Source: Sphingobacteriales bacterium (GTDB taxonomy: Bacteria; Bacteroidota; Bacteroidia; Chitinophagales; Chitinophagaceae). From it: 64,000 nucleotides of DNA. Location: positions 3,136-67,135 of the forward strand of contig JAHEEX010000001.1 of the NCBI GenBank assembly GCA_024640465.1. The letters run 5' to 3'. The notes under the pieces were generated by a model, which was not told the DNA's origin, did no database searches, and worked only from the letters and a program-made list of their open reading frames with translations. The translations under genes and the position numbers were made by a program. Positions 5,210 through 60,156 of the stretch are shown one piece after another. Numbering within the stretch: position 1 is the stretch's first letter; each line of letters opens with the position of its first letter.

Positions 5210-5353
5210 GGCAAGGAGAAAATAGTACCTCAATAATGCCGGCTCAGAGATGAATACATTAGCTATAAATTTGCTCTCACACCAGGATACGTATCTGACT
5301 TAATTTTCTATACGCTTAACCAACTTGGAAAATATAAAAAAGAATTGAGTATC

Positions 5354-5683
5354 GTTTCCTGGCAGTTTTGTATTTGCCTTCACTTTCGATTTTCGATTTT
5401 CAACTTTCCATTTTTCTTTACCCTAAATCAATCTCCATATATTCCACAATATTCAACGTCTTCGTTCCCTGGCAGTTTTGCATTTGCCTTCACTTTCGAT
5501 TTTCGATTTTCAACTTTCCATTTTTCTTTACCCTAAATCTATCTCCATATATTCCGCAATATTCAACGTCTTCGTGCCCTGACTGTTTTGTATTTGCCTT
5601 CACTTTCGATTTTCGATTTTCAACTTTCCATTTTTCTTTACCCTAAATCAATCTCCGTATTATCTCCAATATTCAATGTCCTC
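5354..5683. repeat. 110-bp tandem repeat x3, including the 3' end of the neighbouring gene
   Basis: Units aligned at 5354, 5464 and 5574, running into the CDS. Each holds a 64-bp heptamer-rich spacer plus a 46-bp copy of the gene tail with its stop codon. Confidence 0.95.
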
Positions 5684-6630
5684 GTTTCCCCTTTTATTTC
5701 CGTATCACTTCCAATTAATGAATCGTGTAATACAACATCATATAGTTTAGAGAAAGATCCAATAATTGAATCTTTAACAATGGAATAATTGATAAAAGTC
5801 TGTTCCCCTATGGCCACATTTGGCCCAATGATGGAGTTTTGAATTTCGCATCCGGGGGCAATACTAACCGGCGGAATGATGATGGTATTTTCAAACTGGT
5901 GATCTTCCGAAATTTCTCCGCCAAATTTTTTGAGCAGGGTTGCATTGCTTTCGAGGAGGCTTTCTTTTTTCCCGCAATCGAACCAGTTTTTTATTTTATA
6001 GGAAGTGAAAGCTGCACCTTCTTTAATCATACACTCCAATGCATCAGTGAGGCTGTATTCATCATAGCTTTTTACACCTTCACGCAAATTATTTTCGAGG
6101 CATTTAAAAAGCATTTGCGTTTCCCTGATTTTATAAATTCCCACCAGGGCCATATTGGATTTTGGAATTTGCGGTTTCTCCACTACCCTCGTAATCTTTG
6201 ATTCTTCATCTATTTCCGCTACACCAAAATTCCTGGGATCATCCACTTTTTTCACACCCAGTACTGAACCCGGTTGAGAAACAAAATCCTGGACATCGTA
6301 TTCACAAATCGTATCACCAAGAACAATAAATACTTCATCATCACCGGCCATTTCCCGGGTCAGAAAAATGGCATGGCCCAGGCCATGTCGATCATTCTGG
6401 TGAACAAAGTGAAAATGAAGGTCGGGATATTTTATTTGTACATAATCCTTGATCTTATCTCCCAGGTATCCAACAATAAGGATGAACTCACTTATACCAC
6501 CTTCCTTAAGCTGATCAATAATGATACTGAGTATGGTTTTCCCTGCCAATGGAATAAGGGCTTTAGGCTGGGTATATGTATGCGGCCTGAGTTTTGTTCC
6601 GGCACCTGCAACAGGAATGATAGCTTTCAT
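5638..6630 (-). CDS. sugar-phosphate nucleotidyltransferase (long-form glucose-1-phosphate thymidylyltransferase-like)
   Basis: MKAIIPVAGAGTKLRPHTYTQPKAL signature, GLGHAI, VVEKP, WFDCG, and a C-terminal hexapeptide-repeat region. Start set at ATG 6630. Confidence 0.9.
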   Translation of the reverse strand: MKAIIPVAGAGTKLRPHTYTQPKALIPLAGKTILSIIIDQLKEGGISEFILIVGYLGDKIKDYVQIKYPDLHFHFVHQNDRHGLGHAIFLTREMAGDDEVFIVLGDTICEYDVQDFVSQPGSVLGVKKVDDPRNFGVAEIDEESKITRVVEKPQIPKSNMALVGIYKIRETQMLFKCLENNLREGVKSYDEYSLTDALECMIKEGAAFTSYKIKNWFDCGKKESLLESNATLLKKFGGEISEDHQFENTIIIPPVSIAPGCEIQNSIIGPNVAIGEQTFINYSIVKDSIIGSFSKLYDVVLHDSLIGSDTEIKGETRTLNIGDNTEIDLG

Positions 6631-8060: not shown

Positions 8061-8100
8061 AAGAAAATCGAAAGCCGAAAATCGAAAGTTGAAAATAAAA
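8061..8100 (+). repeat. GAAAATC/GAAAGTT heptamer array directly after the glyA stop
   Basis: aagaaaatcgaaagccgaaaatcgaaagttgaaaat; the same family follows the stops at 5638, 19298 and 25259. Confidence 0.8.
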
Positions 8101-17276: not shown

Positions 17277-19298
17277 GTGTCAAAAAATCTGAATAAGGTA
17301 ACTGGTGCCGGTCTCCTGATTGCCTTAGGAATTATCTATGGAGATATTGGAACCTCACCACTCTATGTTTTCAGTGCGATCATTAATGGAAAAGTCATCA
17401 GTGAAGAATTAATTCTGGGCGGATTGTCTTGTATTATCTGGACACTTACATTACAAACTACGGTAAAATATGTTATCCTCACACTTCAGGCTGATAACCG
17501 GGGTGAAGGAGGGATTTTTTCGTTATACACCCTTGTCCGGCGTAGAAAAAAATGGCTGGTGGCCCCTGCTATGATTGGTGGTGCGGCTTTGCTTGCAGAT
17601 GGTATGATTACCCCGCCCATTTCAGTAGCTTCTGCAGTGGAAGGTTTGAAACAAATATCCCGTTTCGAAAATATCCAGGAAATGCAGATAGTATATATTG
17701 TCCTGGGCATTTTAGCTGTACTCTTTTTTGTTCAACAATTTGGCACAGCATCCATCGGAAAACTCTTTGGTCCCATCATGATGACTTGGTTTTCCATGCT
17801 GGCAATCCTCGGGCTCATTCATATATCAGACGACTTCAGTGTATTAAAAGCATTTAACCCGATTTATGCATTTAACCTGCTGGTGAAATATCCGGAAGGG
17901 TTTTGGATTCTCGGTGCTGTTTTCCTGTGTACTACGGGAGCTGAAGCTCTTTATTCAGATCTGGGGCATTGCGGAAAACATAATATCAGGGTTTCATGGA
18001 TTTTTGTAAAAACATCCCTGATCATCAATTACCTTGGACAAGGTGCATGGCTATTAACAAATTCGGGTAAAGTATACGCTAACAGCACACTGATTGTTGA
18101 TAAAGAATTTTTAAGTCAGTTTCCATCGGCATTGCCACTGGAGAACCCGTTCTATGCCGTAATGCCTGAATGGTTCAAAATTTTCGGAATAATCATTGCT
18201 ACCGCTGCCGCCATCATAGCAAGCCAGGCTTTAATCAGCGGATCATTCACTCTAATCAGTGAAGCTATGCGACTAAACCTTTGGCCCAGGTTCAAAATTA
18301 ATTACCCATCAGAAGAAAGGGGTCAGTTGTTCATTCCGGCTATTAATAACCTGCTATTTGTGGGCTGTTGCGGTATTGTTCTTTATTTCAGAAATTCAGG
18401 CAATATGGAAGGTGCTTATGGTTTGGCCATTACGCTATGCATGATTGCAACTTCTATCTTATTTGCCAATTATCTTGTTTTACACAGGGTTAATGCTGCA
18501 TGGATCTATTTATACCTTATTGTATATTTTGCCATCGAATTCAGTTTTCTAATTGCCAACCTGCTGGAAAAATTTCCCCATGGTGGTTATGTAACACTTT
18601 TTGTTGGTGGTTTTTTATTCCTCATCATGTATGTATGGTACCGTTCCCGCAAGATCAAAAACCGTTATGTGGAATTTGTTCGGTTGGATCATTACCTGCC
18701 TTTATTGCAGGAACTGAGTAACGATACCACCATCAATAAATATGCAACCCATCTTATTTATTTAAGCAGCGCCAATAATCCCAAGGAAATCGAACATAAG
18801 ATCATGCACTCGATCTTAAATAAAAAGCCAAAACGTGCAGATATTTATTGGTTTGTGCATGTAGATACACTTGACGATCCGTATACCTGCGAATATGAAG
18901 TACAAACAATCATTCCTAATGAAGTCATCCGTGTTGAGTTCCGGCTCGGATTCCGCATGGAACCCAAAATCAACCTGATGTTCCGTAAAGTAGTGGAAGA
19001 TATGGTGGCCAATAAAGAAGTAAATATCGTAAGTCGCTATGAAAGCCTGCAGCGCAATAATATCGTAGGCGACTTTGAATTTATTGTTATGGAGAAATTC
19101 CTAAGCCAGGATAATGAATTGCCATTCTGGGAAAGGGTTGTCATGAAACTGTATTTCTGGTTAAAAGAAATAGGCCTTTCAGAAGAACGTGGCTTTGGGC
19201 TGGATCCCAGTAATGTGAAAGTGGAAAAATTCCCGCTCATTGTTGCTCCTGTTACAAAACTCAATCTTAAAAGGATAAGCCCGGAGGAGGAAGAATAA
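17277..19298 (+). CDS. kup: KUP/HAK/KT potassium transporter
   Basis: GIIYGDIGTSPLY, ADNRGEGG, DGMITPPISV, TGAEALYSDLGH, ASQALISGSF. Confidence 0.96.
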   Translation: MSKNLNKVTGAGLLIALGIIYGDIGTSPLYVFSAIINGKVISEELILGGLSCIIWTLTLQTTVKYVILTLQADNRGEGGIFSLYTLVRRRKKWLVAPAMIGGAALLADGMITPPISVASAVEGLKQISRFENIQEMQIVYIVLGILAVLFFVQQFGTASIGKLFGPIMMTWFSMLAILGLIHISDDFSVLKAFNPIYAFNLLVKYPEGFWILGAVFLCTTGAEALYSDLGHCGKHNIRVSWIFVKTSLIINYLGQGAWLLTNSGKVYANSTLIVDKEFLSQFPSALPLENPFYAVMPEWFKIFGIIIATAAAIIASQALISGSFTLISEAMRLNLWPRFKINYPSEERGQLFIPAINNLLFVGCCGIVLYFRNSGNMEGAYGLAITLCMIATSILFANYLVLHRVNAAWIYLYLIVYFAIEFSFLIANLLEKFPHGGYVTLFVGGFLFLIMYVWYRSRKIKNRYVEFVRLDHYLPLLQELSNDTTINKYATHLIYLSSANNPKEIEHKIMHSILNKKPKRADIYWFVHVDTLDDPYTCEYEVQTIIPNEVIRVEFRLGFRMEPKINLMFRKVVEDMVANKEVNIVSRYESLQRNNIVGDFEFIVMEKFLSQDNELPFWERVVMKLYFWLKEIGLSEERGFGLDPSNVKVEKFPLIVAPVTKLNLKRISPEEEE

Positions 19299-19299
19299 T

Positions 19300-19600
19300 T
19301 GAAAATCGAAAAGGGAAAATCGAAAATCGAAAATAACAGCCGGTACAACTTTGCAGAAGGAAAGAATTTCAATAAGATGGCCTGCATTCATTGAAATAAA
19401 CAACCCTTGATTTGCTTTCTTTTGATATCAATCAAATCCCATGGGGAAAAGCGAAAATCTAAAATAACAGCCGGTACAACTTTGCAGAAGGAAAGAATTT
19501 CAATGAAATGCTCTGCATTCATTGAAACAAACAACGCTTGATTTGCTTTCTTTCGATATCAATCAAATCCCATGGGAAAATCGAAAATAAAAGCCAGTAC
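19300..19600. repeat. heptamer array plus ~131-bp tandem duplication (2.2 copies)
   Basis: aataacagccggtacaactttgcagaagg... at 19332 and 19463, with a partial third copy at 19586; each copy is preceded by GAAAATC units. Confidence 0.9.
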
Positions 19601-25259: not shown

Positions 25260-25306
25260 GGAAATCGAAAGTTGAAAATCGAAAGTCGAAAGTAAAGGCA
25301 AATACA
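25260..25306 (+). repeat. GAAAATC heptamer element after the fhs stop
   Basis: gaaagttgaaaatcgaaagtcgaaagtaaaggcaaataca is nearly identical to the reverse complement of the spacer in the 5354-5683 repeat. Confidence 0.85.
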
Positions 25307-28170: not shown

Positions 28171-30378
28171 ATGAAGAAGGATTTCAGGCGTTTATTGGTT
28201 ACAGCTGCATTACCCTATGCCAATGGCCCGGTTCATATCGGCCACCTGGCTGGATGTTACCTGCCATCGGATATTTATGTGCGATATCAGCGGGCACAAA
28301 AAAGAGATATCAAATTTGTTTGTGGCAGTGATGAGCATGGTGTACCCATCACCATCCGCGCCATGAAAGAAGGGATCACCCCGCAGGAAGTGGTCAATAA
28401 ATACCATGCTATAATTAAAGAAAGCTTTGAAAACATAGGTATTTCATTTGATATCTATTCCCGGACTTCCAACCCTGTTCATCACCAGACCTCAGCCGAT
28501 TTTTTCAGGAACCTGTATGACAAAAGCCTGTTCGAAGAAAAAGAAACCGAGCAATATTATGATGAAAAGGCACAGGTATTCCTGGCAGACAGGTATATAA
28601 CCGGCACCTGCCCGGTTTGTGCCAATCCAAATGCATACGGCGACCAGTGCGAAAAATGCGGAAGTGCTTTATCTCCTGAACAACTGATCAATCCTAAGTC
28701 AACCTTAAGCGATGCCATTCCGGTAAAGAAACTCACCAAACACTGGTATTTCCCCTTACAACAATATGAGGACTGGCTGAAAAAATGGGTACTCGAAGAA
28801 CACAGCGACTGGAAGAATAACGTCCTTGGCCAGTGTAAAAGCTGGCTGGATAGTGGCTTACAGAGTCGTGCCATGACACGAGACAGTCAGTGGGGCGTGA
28901 AAGTACCTATAGAAGGAGCAGAAGGGAAAGTGCTGTATGTATGGTTTGATGCACCTATTGGATATATCAGCGCTACAAAAGAACTGACTGCACAATGGGG
29001 TGATTACTGGTGCTCGGAAGATACCAAGCTGGTACACTTTATTGGCAAGGATAATATCGTTTTCCATTGCATCATTTTCCCGGCGATGCTGAAAGCCCAT
29101 GGCAATTTTGTGCTGCCGGAAAATGTTCCCGCCAATGAATTCCTGAATATTGAAGGCGAAAAAGTATCCACCTCCAGAAACTGGGCAGTATGGGTACATG
29201 AATATATTGCAGATTTTCCCGGATGTGAAGACGTCCTACGTTACGTTCTATGTGCTAATGCCCCGGAAACAAAAGACAATGATTTTACCTGGAAAGATTT
29301 CCAGGACAGGAATAATAGTGAGCTGGTGGCCATTTTTGGAAACTTTGTAAACCGCACCTGGGTACTCATGCACAAACTTTGCATGGGTAAAGTTCCGAAG
29401 CTCCACGAAGAAAAACTGGATGATACGGACCGTCAGATGTTGGCAGAGTTTGCCAATACTAAAGCCAAAGTGGAAGAAAGCATCGAACAATATAAATTCC
29501 GGGAAGCACTTTTTGAGGTGATCGACCTCGCCCGTAAAGGCAATAAATATTTACAGGAAAAAGAACCCTGGATCCTTGCCAAAAACCTGGCATCGAACCC
29601 CGAAAACCAGGAAGGGATTGACAACTGTTTACATATCTGTTTACAGCTTTGCGCCAACCTGTCTATTCTGATCAATCCCTTCCTGCCTTTCACCGCAAAG
29701 AAACTGATCTACATGATGAAGGTGGTGGAGAAAATGCTCGACTGGGAAAATGCGGGAAAGACCAAACTGCTGAGTGTTGGATATAGCTTGCGTGAACCAC
29801 AATTACTGTTTCGCAAAATTGAGGATGAGGAAGTGGCGGCGCAGGTGGAGAAGCTCCAGGCTGGAACAAAGAAGTTGACAGTTGACAGTTCACAGTTGAC
29901 GGGTAACAGCCAGGGAGATACAGTCGGGAGTCAGGAGCCGGGAGTCGATAGTCAACAGCCGGCTGTTTCTGTCAACAGTCAACTGTCAACTGTCAACCTT
30001 CAACCTTCAACCGATTTAAAACCGGACTTGTCCGCCGTAGCTTTAGCGAAGGCGGAGATTGTGTTTGATGATTTTGCAAAGATTGACCTTAAAGTTGGCA
30101 CAATCCTCTCTGCAGAAAAAGTAGCTAAGGCTGATAAATTACTGAAGCTTGACATTGATCTTGGATTTGAAACAAGGACTATAGTTTCAGGCATCGCTTT
30201 ACATTATCAACCTGAGCAGATCATCGGAAAGCAGGTAGTCGTGGTGGTTAATCTGGCACCACGTAAAATGAAAGGAGTGGAAAGCAGGGGAATGATCTTA
30301 ATGGCGGAAGATGCTGCGGGGAAATTACATTTTGTATCACCCGGTGAAATGATAAACCCGGGAGCGGGTGTAAGTTGA
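28171..30378 (+). CDS. metG: methionine--tRNA ligase with C-terminal tRNA-binding domain and a repeat-derived linker insertion
   Basis: [13 protein letters not shown] (HIGH motif), GSDEHG, CPVC/CEKC zinc knuckle, YVWFDA, KVSTS, and a C-terminal Trbp111-like domain ([11 protein letters not shown]...[15 protein letters not shown]). Confidence 0.98.
29872..30057. repeat. in-frame repeat insertion in metG: inverted heptamer arrays plus a CCGCCGTAGCTTTAGCGAAGGCGG palindrome
   Basis: (AGTTGAC)n at 29872-29901, GGGAGTC-like units at ~29925-29947, (GTCAACT)n at 29970-29998, palindrome at 30031-30056. Confidence 0.85.
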
Positions 30379-58773: not shown

Positions 58774-60156
58774 ATGAAACATTTCTTAGTGGCTGCGTGC
58801 CTGTTAATCATTCAAAGCGCAGTTGGACAAAAAATCGTTAAGGACCATTACACCGTATCAGCAGGTATCCTTGGTGCTGCTAATTTCACAAACTTCAGTA
58901 TTAAAGACAATAGTAACCTCGATTATTCTACTCAATTTGGCTGGGGTGCTGGTGGTTATATAAATTTCCCCCTGGGTAAAGTAATTTCATTCGAGCCTCA
59001 GTTTATGTATAATCAATATGCATATCAAACAGATGCAACTGCGTTTTTGAATGATGCGAAAGCCGGCTACTTTTCTATTCCTGTTTTGCTGAAATTTCAT
59101 CTGGGTAGCAAATTTGCCATCACTGCAGGTCCTCAGTTCGATTTTTTAACATCAGTGGATGATAATAATAACAATTATACTAAAGATGATGTTACAAAAT
59201 CAAGCGTAGCTATTAATGCAGGTTTTGAGCTTTTCCCGCATGGCCGTGTTGTTCCTTTCGCCCGTTATATTTACGGATTTACCAATATGGATAATACAGG
59301 AAACCCAAATACAGTTGGCGAATACCACAACCAGAATTTCCAGGTTGGTTTGAAATTACGCCTGATCGGAGGAAAGCATATCCTTGCTGATTCTGACGGT
59401 GATGGCGTTGTTGATAAAGACGACAAATGTCCTTCACAGGTTGGTCTGGCACGTTATAACGGTTGCCCGATCCCTGATACAGACGGAGACGGATTCAACG
59501 ACGAAGTGGATAAATGTCCTACTGTTGCCGGTATTGAGAAATATGGCGGATGCCCTATTCCTGATACAGATAAAGATGGTATCAATGATGAGCAGGACAA
59601 GTGCCCAACTGTTGCCGGTTTAGCTAAATACAATGGCTGCCCTATCCCTGATACTGATGGCGATGGCATCAATGATGAACAAGATAAATGTCCAAGCGTA
59701 GCTGGTTTAGCTAAATACAATGGTTGCCCTATCCCTGATACAGATGGTGATGGCATCAATGATGAAGAAGACCGTTGCCCTGATGTTGCCGGTGTTGCTG
59801 AAATGATGGGTTGCCCTAAAATCGACTACCAGGCACATGAAGTACTCTTCCAGTCTGGCAAAGCCACTCTTTTACCTGCAGGTAAAAAAGAACTGGATGT
59901 ACTCACTAATTTCCTGACTAAAAATCCTAATGTTAATATCACCCTTATTGGTTATACAGACAATACAGGAACTGACAAGATCAACGAACCTTTATCTGTT
60001 AAACGTGCAGAATCAGCTAAAGCTTACCTGGTAAGCAAAGGCATTGATGCTGGCAGGATCCAGACTGAAGGTCATGGTTCTCAGGATCCGATTGCAGACA
60101 ATAAAACTGCTGCCGGTAAAGCCAAAAACCGCAGGATTGAACTGAAAGTCAACTAA
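58774..60156 (+). CDS. OmpA-family protein: beta-barrel, five thrombospondin type-3-like repeats, OmpA C-terminal domain
   Basis: Signal peptide; amphipathic barrel; D.DGDG..D..DKCP repeats; GYTDNTG...N..LS..RA peptidoglycan-binding motif; NRRIEL. Confidence 0.93.
   Translation: MKHFLVAACLLIIQSAVGQKIVKDHYTVSAGILGAANFTNFSIKDNSNLDYSTQFGWGAGGYINFPLGKVISFEPQFMYNQYAYQTDATAFLNDAKAGYFSIPVLLKFHLGSKFAITAGPQFDFLTSVDDNNNNYTKDDVTKSSVAINAGFELFPHGRVVPFARYIYGFTNMDNTGNPNTVGEYHNQNFQVGLKLRLIGGKHILADSDGDGVVDKDDKCPSQVGLARYNGCPIPDTDGDGFNDEVDKCPTVAGIEKYGGCPIPDTDKDGINDEQDKCPTVAGLAKYNGCPIPDTDGDGINDEQDKCPSVAGLAKYNGCPIPDTDGDGINDEEDRCPDVAGVAEMMGCPKIDYQAHEVLFQSGKATLLPAGKKELDVLTNFLTKNPNVNITLIGYTDNTGTDKINEPLSVKRAESAKAYLVSKGIDAGRIQTEGHGSQDPIADNKTAAGKAKNRRIELKVN
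59389..59817 (+). repeat. 87-bp (29-aa) coding tandem repeat x5
   Basis: Units of the form DTDGDGINDEQDKCPSVAGLAKYNGCPIP. Confidence 0.9.

Follow-up and report, generated by a model that had tools for sequence, protein, structure and literature searches.

A dispersed heptamer-built hairpin element and a small palindrome in the metG linker of a Chitinophagaceae genome, and the possible connection of the element to PF05635 genes

In the 64,000-nucleotide (nt) stretch of DNA analysed here (the window, C149:3136-67135), metG, the gene for methionyl-tRNA synthetase (MetRS), carries a tract of tandem heptamers and a palindrome between two conserved domains, and the question raised by this locus is how an essential single-copy enzyme came to contain such sequence. 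The host genome is metagenome-assembled (3.8 Mb, 330 contigs, 41.5% G+C), the nearest relatives of its MetRS by sequence comparison are Chitinophagaceae proteins, and the sequencing runs that hold the metG region are freshwater and sediment metagenomes. A first-pass annotation of the window had proposed an in-frame insertion built from two kinds of selfish repeat. We consider it highly probable that the tether of MetRS was overwritten by one copy of a dispersed, genome-specific heptamer hairpin, an open reading frame (ORF)-less miniature of a family associated with PF05635 genes, together with one copy of a small palindrome, and that the tract is carried along as a translated passenger.

The metG gene (window 28171-30378, + strand) encodes 735 amino acids (aa) and was identified from its ORF, Pfam domains and PDB matches. 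It has the class I catalytic core (tRNA-synt_1g, aa 9-396), the anticodon-binding domain (Anticodon_3, aa 416-562) and the C-terminal Trbp111-like tRNA-binding domain (tRNA_bind, aa 640-731), with a variable linker before the last of these. A search of the host's own genome returned one full-length match only, indicating that metG is single in the assembly; a stand-alone Trbp111/CsaA-like protein encoded at C5:3618-3944 is 33% identical to the C-terminal tRNA-binding domain. The linker between the conserved residues L562 and K627 has 64 aa here; across 37 MetRS sequences from other Bacteroidota it ranges from 17 to 49 aa, with a median of 26. In the three closest congeners (G015, G018 and G022; 78-81% identity) it has 25-35 aa of unrelated sequence, and alignments at the protein and DNA levels found no counterpart of window 29873-30012 in these three genomes. 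Linkers 45-55 aa shorter had been expected in relatives; orthologue linkers are indeed much shorter and non-homologous, but the excess is about 27-47 aa. Solved structures (1rqg, 1pyb and 1mkh) match aa 6-568 and 626-733, and in the same PDB search aa 569-625 aligned to no solved MetRS structure. In an AlphaFold model computed from a 38-sequence alignment (mean predicted local distance difference test score, pLDDT, of 86), the two flanking domains exceed 90, and aa 573-635 lie at about 30, all below 50; the model predicts that the linker with the repeat tract (aa 568-629) is disordered.

The greater part of this linker is encoded by a heptamer-built hairpin element of 140 nt (29873-30012, + strand, aa 568-614, in frame), as delimited by repeat and fold analysis. 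Its left arm, (AGTTGAC)4.0 by Tandem Repeats Finder (TRF), occupies 29873-29900 and is followed by an inner-left motif recognised by sequence comparison, GGGTAACAGCCAGGGAGATAC (29901-29921), and by a second module, an AGTCGGG array of about 3.7 copies with 78% matches (29922-29947, TRF). The 27-nt centre (29950-29976), delimited by an exact-match search of the genome, is AGTCAACAGCC joined to GGCTGTTTCTGTCAAC and has no loop. The right arm as a whole (29969-30012) was read from TRF and contig comparison as (CTGTCAA)4 and then degenerate (TCAACCT)3, which TRF reports as (CTGTCAA)4.1 at 29969-29997 and (TCAACCT)2.9 at 29993-30012; all of these modules are given on the + strand. The outer arrays are opposed, (AGTTGAC)4 facing inverted (NGTCAAC)4-6, and the inverted arms 29874-29909 and 29969-30004 are 83% complementary over 36 nt, with a 27-nt core at 93%. 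RNA of the region 29860-30070 folds at -80.9 kcal/mol (z = -4.5), and none of 200 shuffled sequences folded as well. The reading frame is open across the tract and the palindrome behind it. These results bear out what had been read from the letters, namely an (AGTTGAC)n array facing its reverse complement across further heptamers and able to form a long hairpin, with the frame preserved through the repeats and the peptide as quoted. Searches of Rfam at E ≤ 1 with two heptamer elements and five palindrome loci returned no match.

The tract was recovered in contigs from three independent studies. A 539-nt Logan contig of run X2 spans 29780-30056 without gaps and with 1 difference, and a 1062-nt contig of run X9, which belongs to another study, spans 29602-29990 without gaps and with 25 differences, representing a strain about 94% identical. 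In a third study (runs X4 and X5), small contigs of strains that are also about 94% identical tile the tract. Given that Logan contigs of several runs and studies span the tract, an assembly artefact was ruled out. The sole length variant observed in the metG tract is a 21-nt change in two runs, in which 29991-30011 is missing; this corresponds to three units and seven aa, so that the frame is kept. A contig of run X1 has the 21-nt gap in the tract, and a loose end at 29990 in run X5 runs on into CGATTTAAAACCGGACT / CGATTTAAAACC, indicating that 29991-30011 is deleted there as well. Two further joints, a skip of 77 nt (run X3) and one of 108 nt (run X5), were left unused, as their sides are only 22-23 nt and they probably derive from other copies of the element.

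The same modules occur elsewhere in the genome. BLAST searches recovered the order (AGTTGAC)n, ..AACAGCC.., (GAGTCGN)n, AGTCAACAGCC, an optional AT-rich loop, GGCTGTTTC and (NGTCAAC)n, and this composite order recurs at C234 and C202, with the loop-less centre at C66 and C156. The exact 27-mer centre is present at three genomic places only (metG, C66:8493 and C156:5011), and the metG and C66 copies match over 56 nt at 96%, so that a defined sequence has been dispersed. Judging from this shared order, AGTTGAC, GAGTCGG and GTCAAC arrays are modules of one composite element type, not separate repeats. The proposal that two families are stacked in the linker thus holds for hairpin and palindrome but not for the heptamer arrays among themselves. 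Arrays of the GTCAAC type were found at about 25 loci (61 overlapping pattern matches in the host's own genome), and the pattern of four GTCAACN units in 4 of 41 relatives and in none of the three closest, a patchy and lineage-specific distribution. Genome-wide, period-7 arrays are in excess, with 567 as against 88 of period 6 and 164 of period 8, and the dominant heptamer units are AAAATCG, CGCCAGT, ATTCCTT, GACAGTT/GACGGTT and CGGGAGT/AGTCATT.

Large in-frame tracts of metG-type modules also lie in the linkers of at least seven further Pfam-verified housekeeping proteins. These are an E1 dehydrogenase alpha-beta fusion (tract between the halves), an IcmF-like B12-MeaB-mutase fusion, the Lhr helicase (86-aa tract), UvrD/PcrA, NadE (tract between the nitrilase and synthetase domains), LpxB (55-aa tract) and GcvP. 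Both motif peptides quoted in the first-pass annotation have counterparts in the proteome: tract peptides were found in E1, NadE, LpxB and UvrD, and LSAxAxAKA in a histidine kinase. The encoded peptides are nearly identical: VDSSQLT is common to metG, E1 and NadE, NSQLSTVN to metG and LpxB, STVNRQ to UvrD and NadE, and ESGVGSQ to Lhr and UvrD. Relatives of NadE have a variable linker of 16-30 aa at the tract position, and under the metG tract almost no residues of the ancestral linker are left; in these two genes, the alignments suggest that tracts replace linkers as much as they extend them.

The metG linker is occupied by other arrays in two further genomes. A Niabella sp. metagenome-assembled genome (MAG; JAGIAT010000004.1, L034:2711-2815) holds an in-frame (CAGTCAT)13 there, read as QSSV(I/V)S(D/N), and a Deminuibacter MAG (L050:2718-2765) an in-frame (CAGCAGT)7. 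The metG linker thus seems to have been colonised repeatedly across Chitinophagaceae genera.

Reading through such arrays has left traces in the coding copies. In (AGTTGAC)n, TGA arises in every frame within three units; the third unit of the metG left arm (29887-29893) is AGTTCAC, by which the in-frame TGA has become TCA (Ser). The whole genome contains 38 NGTTGAC runs, 31 of them closed in all three frames. Three runs (metG, E1 and NadE) are genic and read in sense, and their in-frame TGA is changed to TCA, TCA and TTA, respectively. On the other hand, outside coding sequence 4 of 35 runs are open, all of them short or degenerate and intergenic. A hypergeometric estimate of stop purging from these run counts gives p ~0.004. 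The X9 strain has GGGGAAC at the stop-bearing unit of metG, which is a different stop-free solution. Stop purging and the three-unit length variant appear to be visible marks of selection for translation, and the open frame together with stop purging suggests that the tract is translated into protein.

Behind the hairpin element lies a 26-nt imperfect palindrome, TCCGCCGTAGCT-TT-AGCGAAGGCGGA (30031-30056, + strand), which encodes SAVALAKAE and whose arms (30031-30042 and 30045-30056, 12 nt each) are 83% complementary. An nhmmer profile search of the genome found a family of about 15-20 copies, mostly intergenic or outside long ORFs, and the intergenic copies sit within a longer conserved motif, TTGCGNTCTT-hairpin-TTCTTTGCGGTTAAA. 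Two other loci agree with the palindrome core in 23 of 24 nt. A strong copy lies in a sensor histidine-kinase gene (C206:5788-5814), just after the N box and in the same frame (LSAEAIAKAG); the paralogue of this kinase at C70:5324-5344 reads LSAKALAKNDG with a weak DNA match and may be a decayed version. The only PF01797 (Y1_Tnp) gene of the genome (C323:4930-5268) has no such palindrome within 500 nt, and membership of the repetitive extragenic palindromic (REP) elements with their associated tyrosine transposases (RAYT) was rejected, since no copies of the palindrome flank this sole Y1 transposase gene. The metG palindrome is a genuine dispersed hairpin, for which the label "REP-type" given in the first-pass annotation is merely descriptive. 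With much shorter, non-homologous linkers in the orthologues, and with both the heptamers and the palindrome core repeated elsewhere in the genome, the main interpretation of that annotation is supported.

What links the hairpin element to a gene is the setting of the seven PF05635 genes in this genome. We take PF05635 to be the family of the 23S rRNA intervening sequence (IVS) protein (S23p, Avd-like), related to Avd, the accessory protein of diversity-generating retroelements; we know of no function for it. Every one of them is bracketed by inverted heptamer arrays with a unit of its own, and none sits inside an rRNA gene. The element at C134 (1312-1881, gene 1455-1772) consists of (G/AGTTGAC)5-GGTAACGGC, the gene and (CGTCAAC)8, which are the units of metG. 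The element at C186 (3044-3660) has GAGTCGG/TTAGTCA units, those of the middle (second) module of metG, and its right end, GGCTGTTGACTAAT..., is the complement of the metG centre AGTCAACAGCC. Moreover, the (G)GTAAC(A/G)GC motif of metG 29901-29921 recurs inside the left arms of the C134 element and of C202. The arms of the remaining elements are of the CGCCAGT type (C314, 5981-6657), the AAAATCG type (C66, 5646-6605), the ATTCCTT type (C263, 4350-5128, and C260, 1935-2692) and the GAGGGTA type (C180, 21646-22230). The units of the seven elements are the top heptamer families of the genome, the closest PF05635 paralogues have similar heptamer units, and 315 of the 419 period-7 arrays with at least three copies (75%) use exactly a unit found in a PF05635 element. 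An assignment allowing up to one mismatch (408 of 419) was discarded as uninformative, because the neighbourhood then spans most of the 7-mer space.

The association extends beyond this genome. Among 30 PF05635 loci from other Chitinophagales, about 19-20 are flanked on either side by inverted period-7 arrays, which consist of other units. In 400-kb genome samples, 0-1 period-7 arrays were found without PF05635 and 6-35 in genomes with 4-9 such genes; array density correlates with PF05635 gene density (rho = 0.88, p = 0.008) in a small sample of seven genomes, including this one, that is not phylogenetically corrected. At C134, the 566 nt that separate rnhA from a convergent membrane-protein gene are taken up by the element; in five congeners, 0-140 nt lie between these two genes, which corresponds to an empty site. 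The structures 2rld and 2gsc, both pentameric four-helix bundles, were found as matches to the PF05635 protein. Our literature search for heptamer-armed PF05635 elements found no description beyond the Coxiella IVS. What is new is that the arrays are built as hairpins, that they are repeatedly read in frame in essential genes of a Bacteroidota lineage and that they are consistently associated with PF05635 genes.

Elements and arrays of these families also bear on gene boundaries. The C134 and C45 elements occupy the entire spacer between adjacent genes, and their left-arm arrays (C134:1305-1325 and C45:5380-5440) provide the stop codon of the upstream gene, rnhA ending in ...GAA TCG GTT GAC AGT TGA. 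Within the window, TTTCGAT/GAAAATC/GAAAGTC arrays, which are units of the C66 PF05635 element, stand directly behind genes at 5352-5686, 8063-8096, 19297-19588 and 25261-25293; those at 5352-5686 and 19313-19588 lie within tandem duplications 110 nt and 131 nt in size.

Taken together, the explanation that we prefer would run as follows. A hairpin copy and then a palindrome copy would have overwritten the flexible tether between the anticodon-binding body and the Trbp111-like domain. The hairpin is made of a left arm (AGTTGAC)n, an inner AACAGCC, a second array (GAGTCGN)n, a centre of AACAGCC joined to GGCTGTT and a right arm (NGTCAAC)n, and would be the ORF-less miniature of full-length relatives that carry a PF05635 gene in the loop between inverted heptamer arrays. 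As a passenger, it would be carried through transcription and translation and give about 47 residues, polar and disordered. The copy could have been tolerated because the linker is length-tolerant, because the element length is a multiple of three and because the single in-frame TGA of the left arm was lost by a point change. Array length would keep drifting by slippage, the variant of the coding copy being one of three units (21 nt). The copy is presumably neutral and may have spread by transposition or by conversion.

A broader proposal concerns the PF05635 proteins themselves, and we put it forward tentatively, as a possibility somewhat short of an even chance. They may supply the trans-acting functions for a widespread and hitherto undescribed class of mobile hairpins with tandem heptamer arrays as arms, in which each paralogue specifies its own heptamer and full-length copies seed ORF-less miniatures both in spacers and, in frame, in the linkers of essential genes such as metG. 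In favour of this are the inverted arrays around all seven PF05635 genes, the 75% share of their units among the arrays, the similar loci in other Chitinophagales, the related units of related proteins, the density correlation and the empty site in congeners. The classical rRNA IVS would then be a special case.

Several observations weigh against this account of the metG tract and its PF05635 connection. About one third of the PF05635 loci of relatives are without clear arrays, and G003 carries GTCAAC arrays although no PF05635 gene was detected in that genome. The inner-right motif of the C134 element is GGCTAAACC, versus GGCTGTTTC in metG, so that the C134 copy is not the direct parent of the metG copy. 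Of the sampled words, at most 9% are present in the RNA runs and about none in metatranscriptomes from the same sample. Target-site duplications and clean boundaries cannot be defined, since the ancestral linker is not conserved, and the metG and NadE tracts replace most of the ancestral linker and are not pure additions. The in-frame insertion proposed at the outset stands in that the tract is extra sequence absent from congeners, but it largely takes the place of an ancestral variable linker. The palindrome is likewise a member of a dispersed family, but its net gain in metG is about four codons (12 nt): its 3' arm AAGGCGGAG (K-A-E) overlaps conserved codons and aligns with AAGGACGAG / AAGCCGGAG of the orthologues (conserved K-x-E), which makes insertion and in-place replacement indistinguishable for the palindrome.

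The replacement of linkers fits in-place conversion as well as it fits insertion followed by deletion, and it leads to the rival that survives best, although we regard it as improbable. Here, a trans-acting, template-directed or conversion process, possibly linked to PF05635, would turn weakly constrained DNA, such as linkers and the ends of genes, into arrays of the genome's own heptamers and palindromes. The metG and NadE tracts do occupy pre-existing variable linkers with almost no ancestral residues left, arrays adjoin stop codons exactly, and the Niabella and Deminuibacter MAGs carry different heptamer arrays at the same metG linker; in addition, the palindrome adds four codons in metG and in the C206 kinase fills a segment of the same length as in the paralogue. 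However, the metG linker is still 15-47 aa longer than that of any homologue, indicating a net insertion. The exactly shared 27-mer and the 56-nt match to C66 look as if a defined sequence had been copied and pasted; compared with congeners, the C134 element adds 566 nt cleanly, and no enzyme responsible for rewriting has been identified.

A selected function appears very unlikely. In principle, RNase III could cut at the mRNA hairpin or translation could pause there, with the effect of tuning MetRS or of uncoupling its C-terminal domain; alternatively, the longer polar tether could itself be adaptive. The stem is strong (-81 kcal/mol), the tract is kept across about 6% nucleotide divergence between strains, and the classical IVS hairpins that carry PF05635 are RNase III substrates (PMC4990558). 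However, the strain variant alters four left-arm bases without compensation, the same element stands in eight unrelated genes and at about 25 intergenic sites, and close congeners manage without the tract. A purely local origin by slippage of a chance heptamer within metG, with nothing from elsewhere in the genome, is scarcely credible and effectively refuted: heptamer arrays do vary in length, as the 21-nt variant illustrates, and Mrazek-type slippage models are cited in PMC4679880, but slippage generates neither an inverted copy of an array nor the composite three-module order, exact 27-mer and 56-nt match that metG shares with other loci, and the metG units belong to the dominant families of the genome.

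If a dispersed heptamer hairpin did overwrite the tether, metG would be a well-documented example in which an essential single-copy enzyme has acquired new translated sequence from selfish repeats. Long-unexplained bacterial heptamer repeats would be tied to PF05635, and both would become experimentally approachable. There is also a practical side, since short-read assemblies break at heptamer tracts and gene calls in MAGs are inflated or disrupted by them, so that annotation gains when they are recognised. The window has another tandem repeat at 59464-59793, with a unit of 87 nt, 3.8 copies and 76% matches; its consensus is coding-like and rich in Asp, Gly and Asn, and it looks like calcium-binding (thrombospondin type 3-like) repeats in a protein of the OmpA family.

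Four known systems can be compared with the metG tract. REP elements and their paired hairpin forms (REPINs) are mobilised by RAYT (Y1) transposases (Bertels & Rainey 2011, PMC3116915). The metG palindrome resembles them as a 26-nt imperfect palindrome in a dispersed, mostly extragenic hairpin family; however, there are only about 15-20 copies, the Y1_Tnp gene is unflanked, and the intergenic copies lie within the longer motif TTGCGNTCTT...TTCTTTGCGGTTAAA.

Heptamer repeats are known as TAACTGA repeats in Beggiatoaceae, Cyanobacteria and five Bacteroidetes (MacGregor 2015, PMC4679880) and as short tandemly repeated repetitive sequences (STRR) in heterocystous cyanobacteria. The arrays described here share with them the tandem 7-nt units, the coexistence of several families per genome, the patchy distribution including Bacteroidetes, and the adjoining of start or stop codons, with stops in one orientation limiting coding use. 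The period-7 excess is present, but the units are others (AGTTGAC, GAGTCGG, AAAATCG, CGCCAGT and ATTCCTT). The published cases are almost wholly intergenic direct repeats with no predicted structure (PMC4679880), whereas the arrays here are the arms of inverted hairpins, in frame in at least eight genes and tied to PF05635. If PF05635 proteins do drive such arrays, this would explain the long-unexplained STRR and TAACTGA repeats.

In the 23S IVS of Coxiella, an S23p ORF is combined with terminal inverted repeats and with GACAGAT heptamers in tandem (Warrier 2016, PMC4990558). As in the S23p IVSs of Coxiella and Leptospira, the PF05635 gene here lies in the loop of a long terminal-inverted-repeat hairpin. 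This loop ORF is present in 7 of 7 full-length relatives and absent from the metG copy, the centre of which is CAACAGCC joined to GGCTGTT with no loop; the long terminal-inverted-repeat stem is present in the metG copy as well. The location differs: the classical IVS is found in helix 25 or 45 of the 23S rRNA, from which RNase III cuts it out, whereas the full-length elements here lie between protein genes, and their ORF-less derivatives lie inside coding genes, where they are necessarily translated.

Together with the bacterial heptamer repeats, the closest known analogues are the Rickettsia palindromic elements (RPEs), reportedly described by Ogata et al. in 2000, and the first-pass annotation was apt in naming them as precedent. 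Both are dispersed palindromic repeats found between genes and in frame within housekeeping genes, where the additional peptide comes to lie at the surface or in a linker and presumably leaves host function intact; here, copies are many and dispersed, with in-frame ones in metG and the seven other Pfam-verified genes. We know of no gene associated with RPEs. RPEs are unique-sequence elements of about 100-150 bp, whereas the metG family consists of tandem-heptamer assemblies, belongs to another phylum, comprises several coexisting unit families and is polymorphic in array length. We treat the metG element as an analogue of the RPEs and not as a member, a heptamer-built counterpart in a Chitinophagaceae host.

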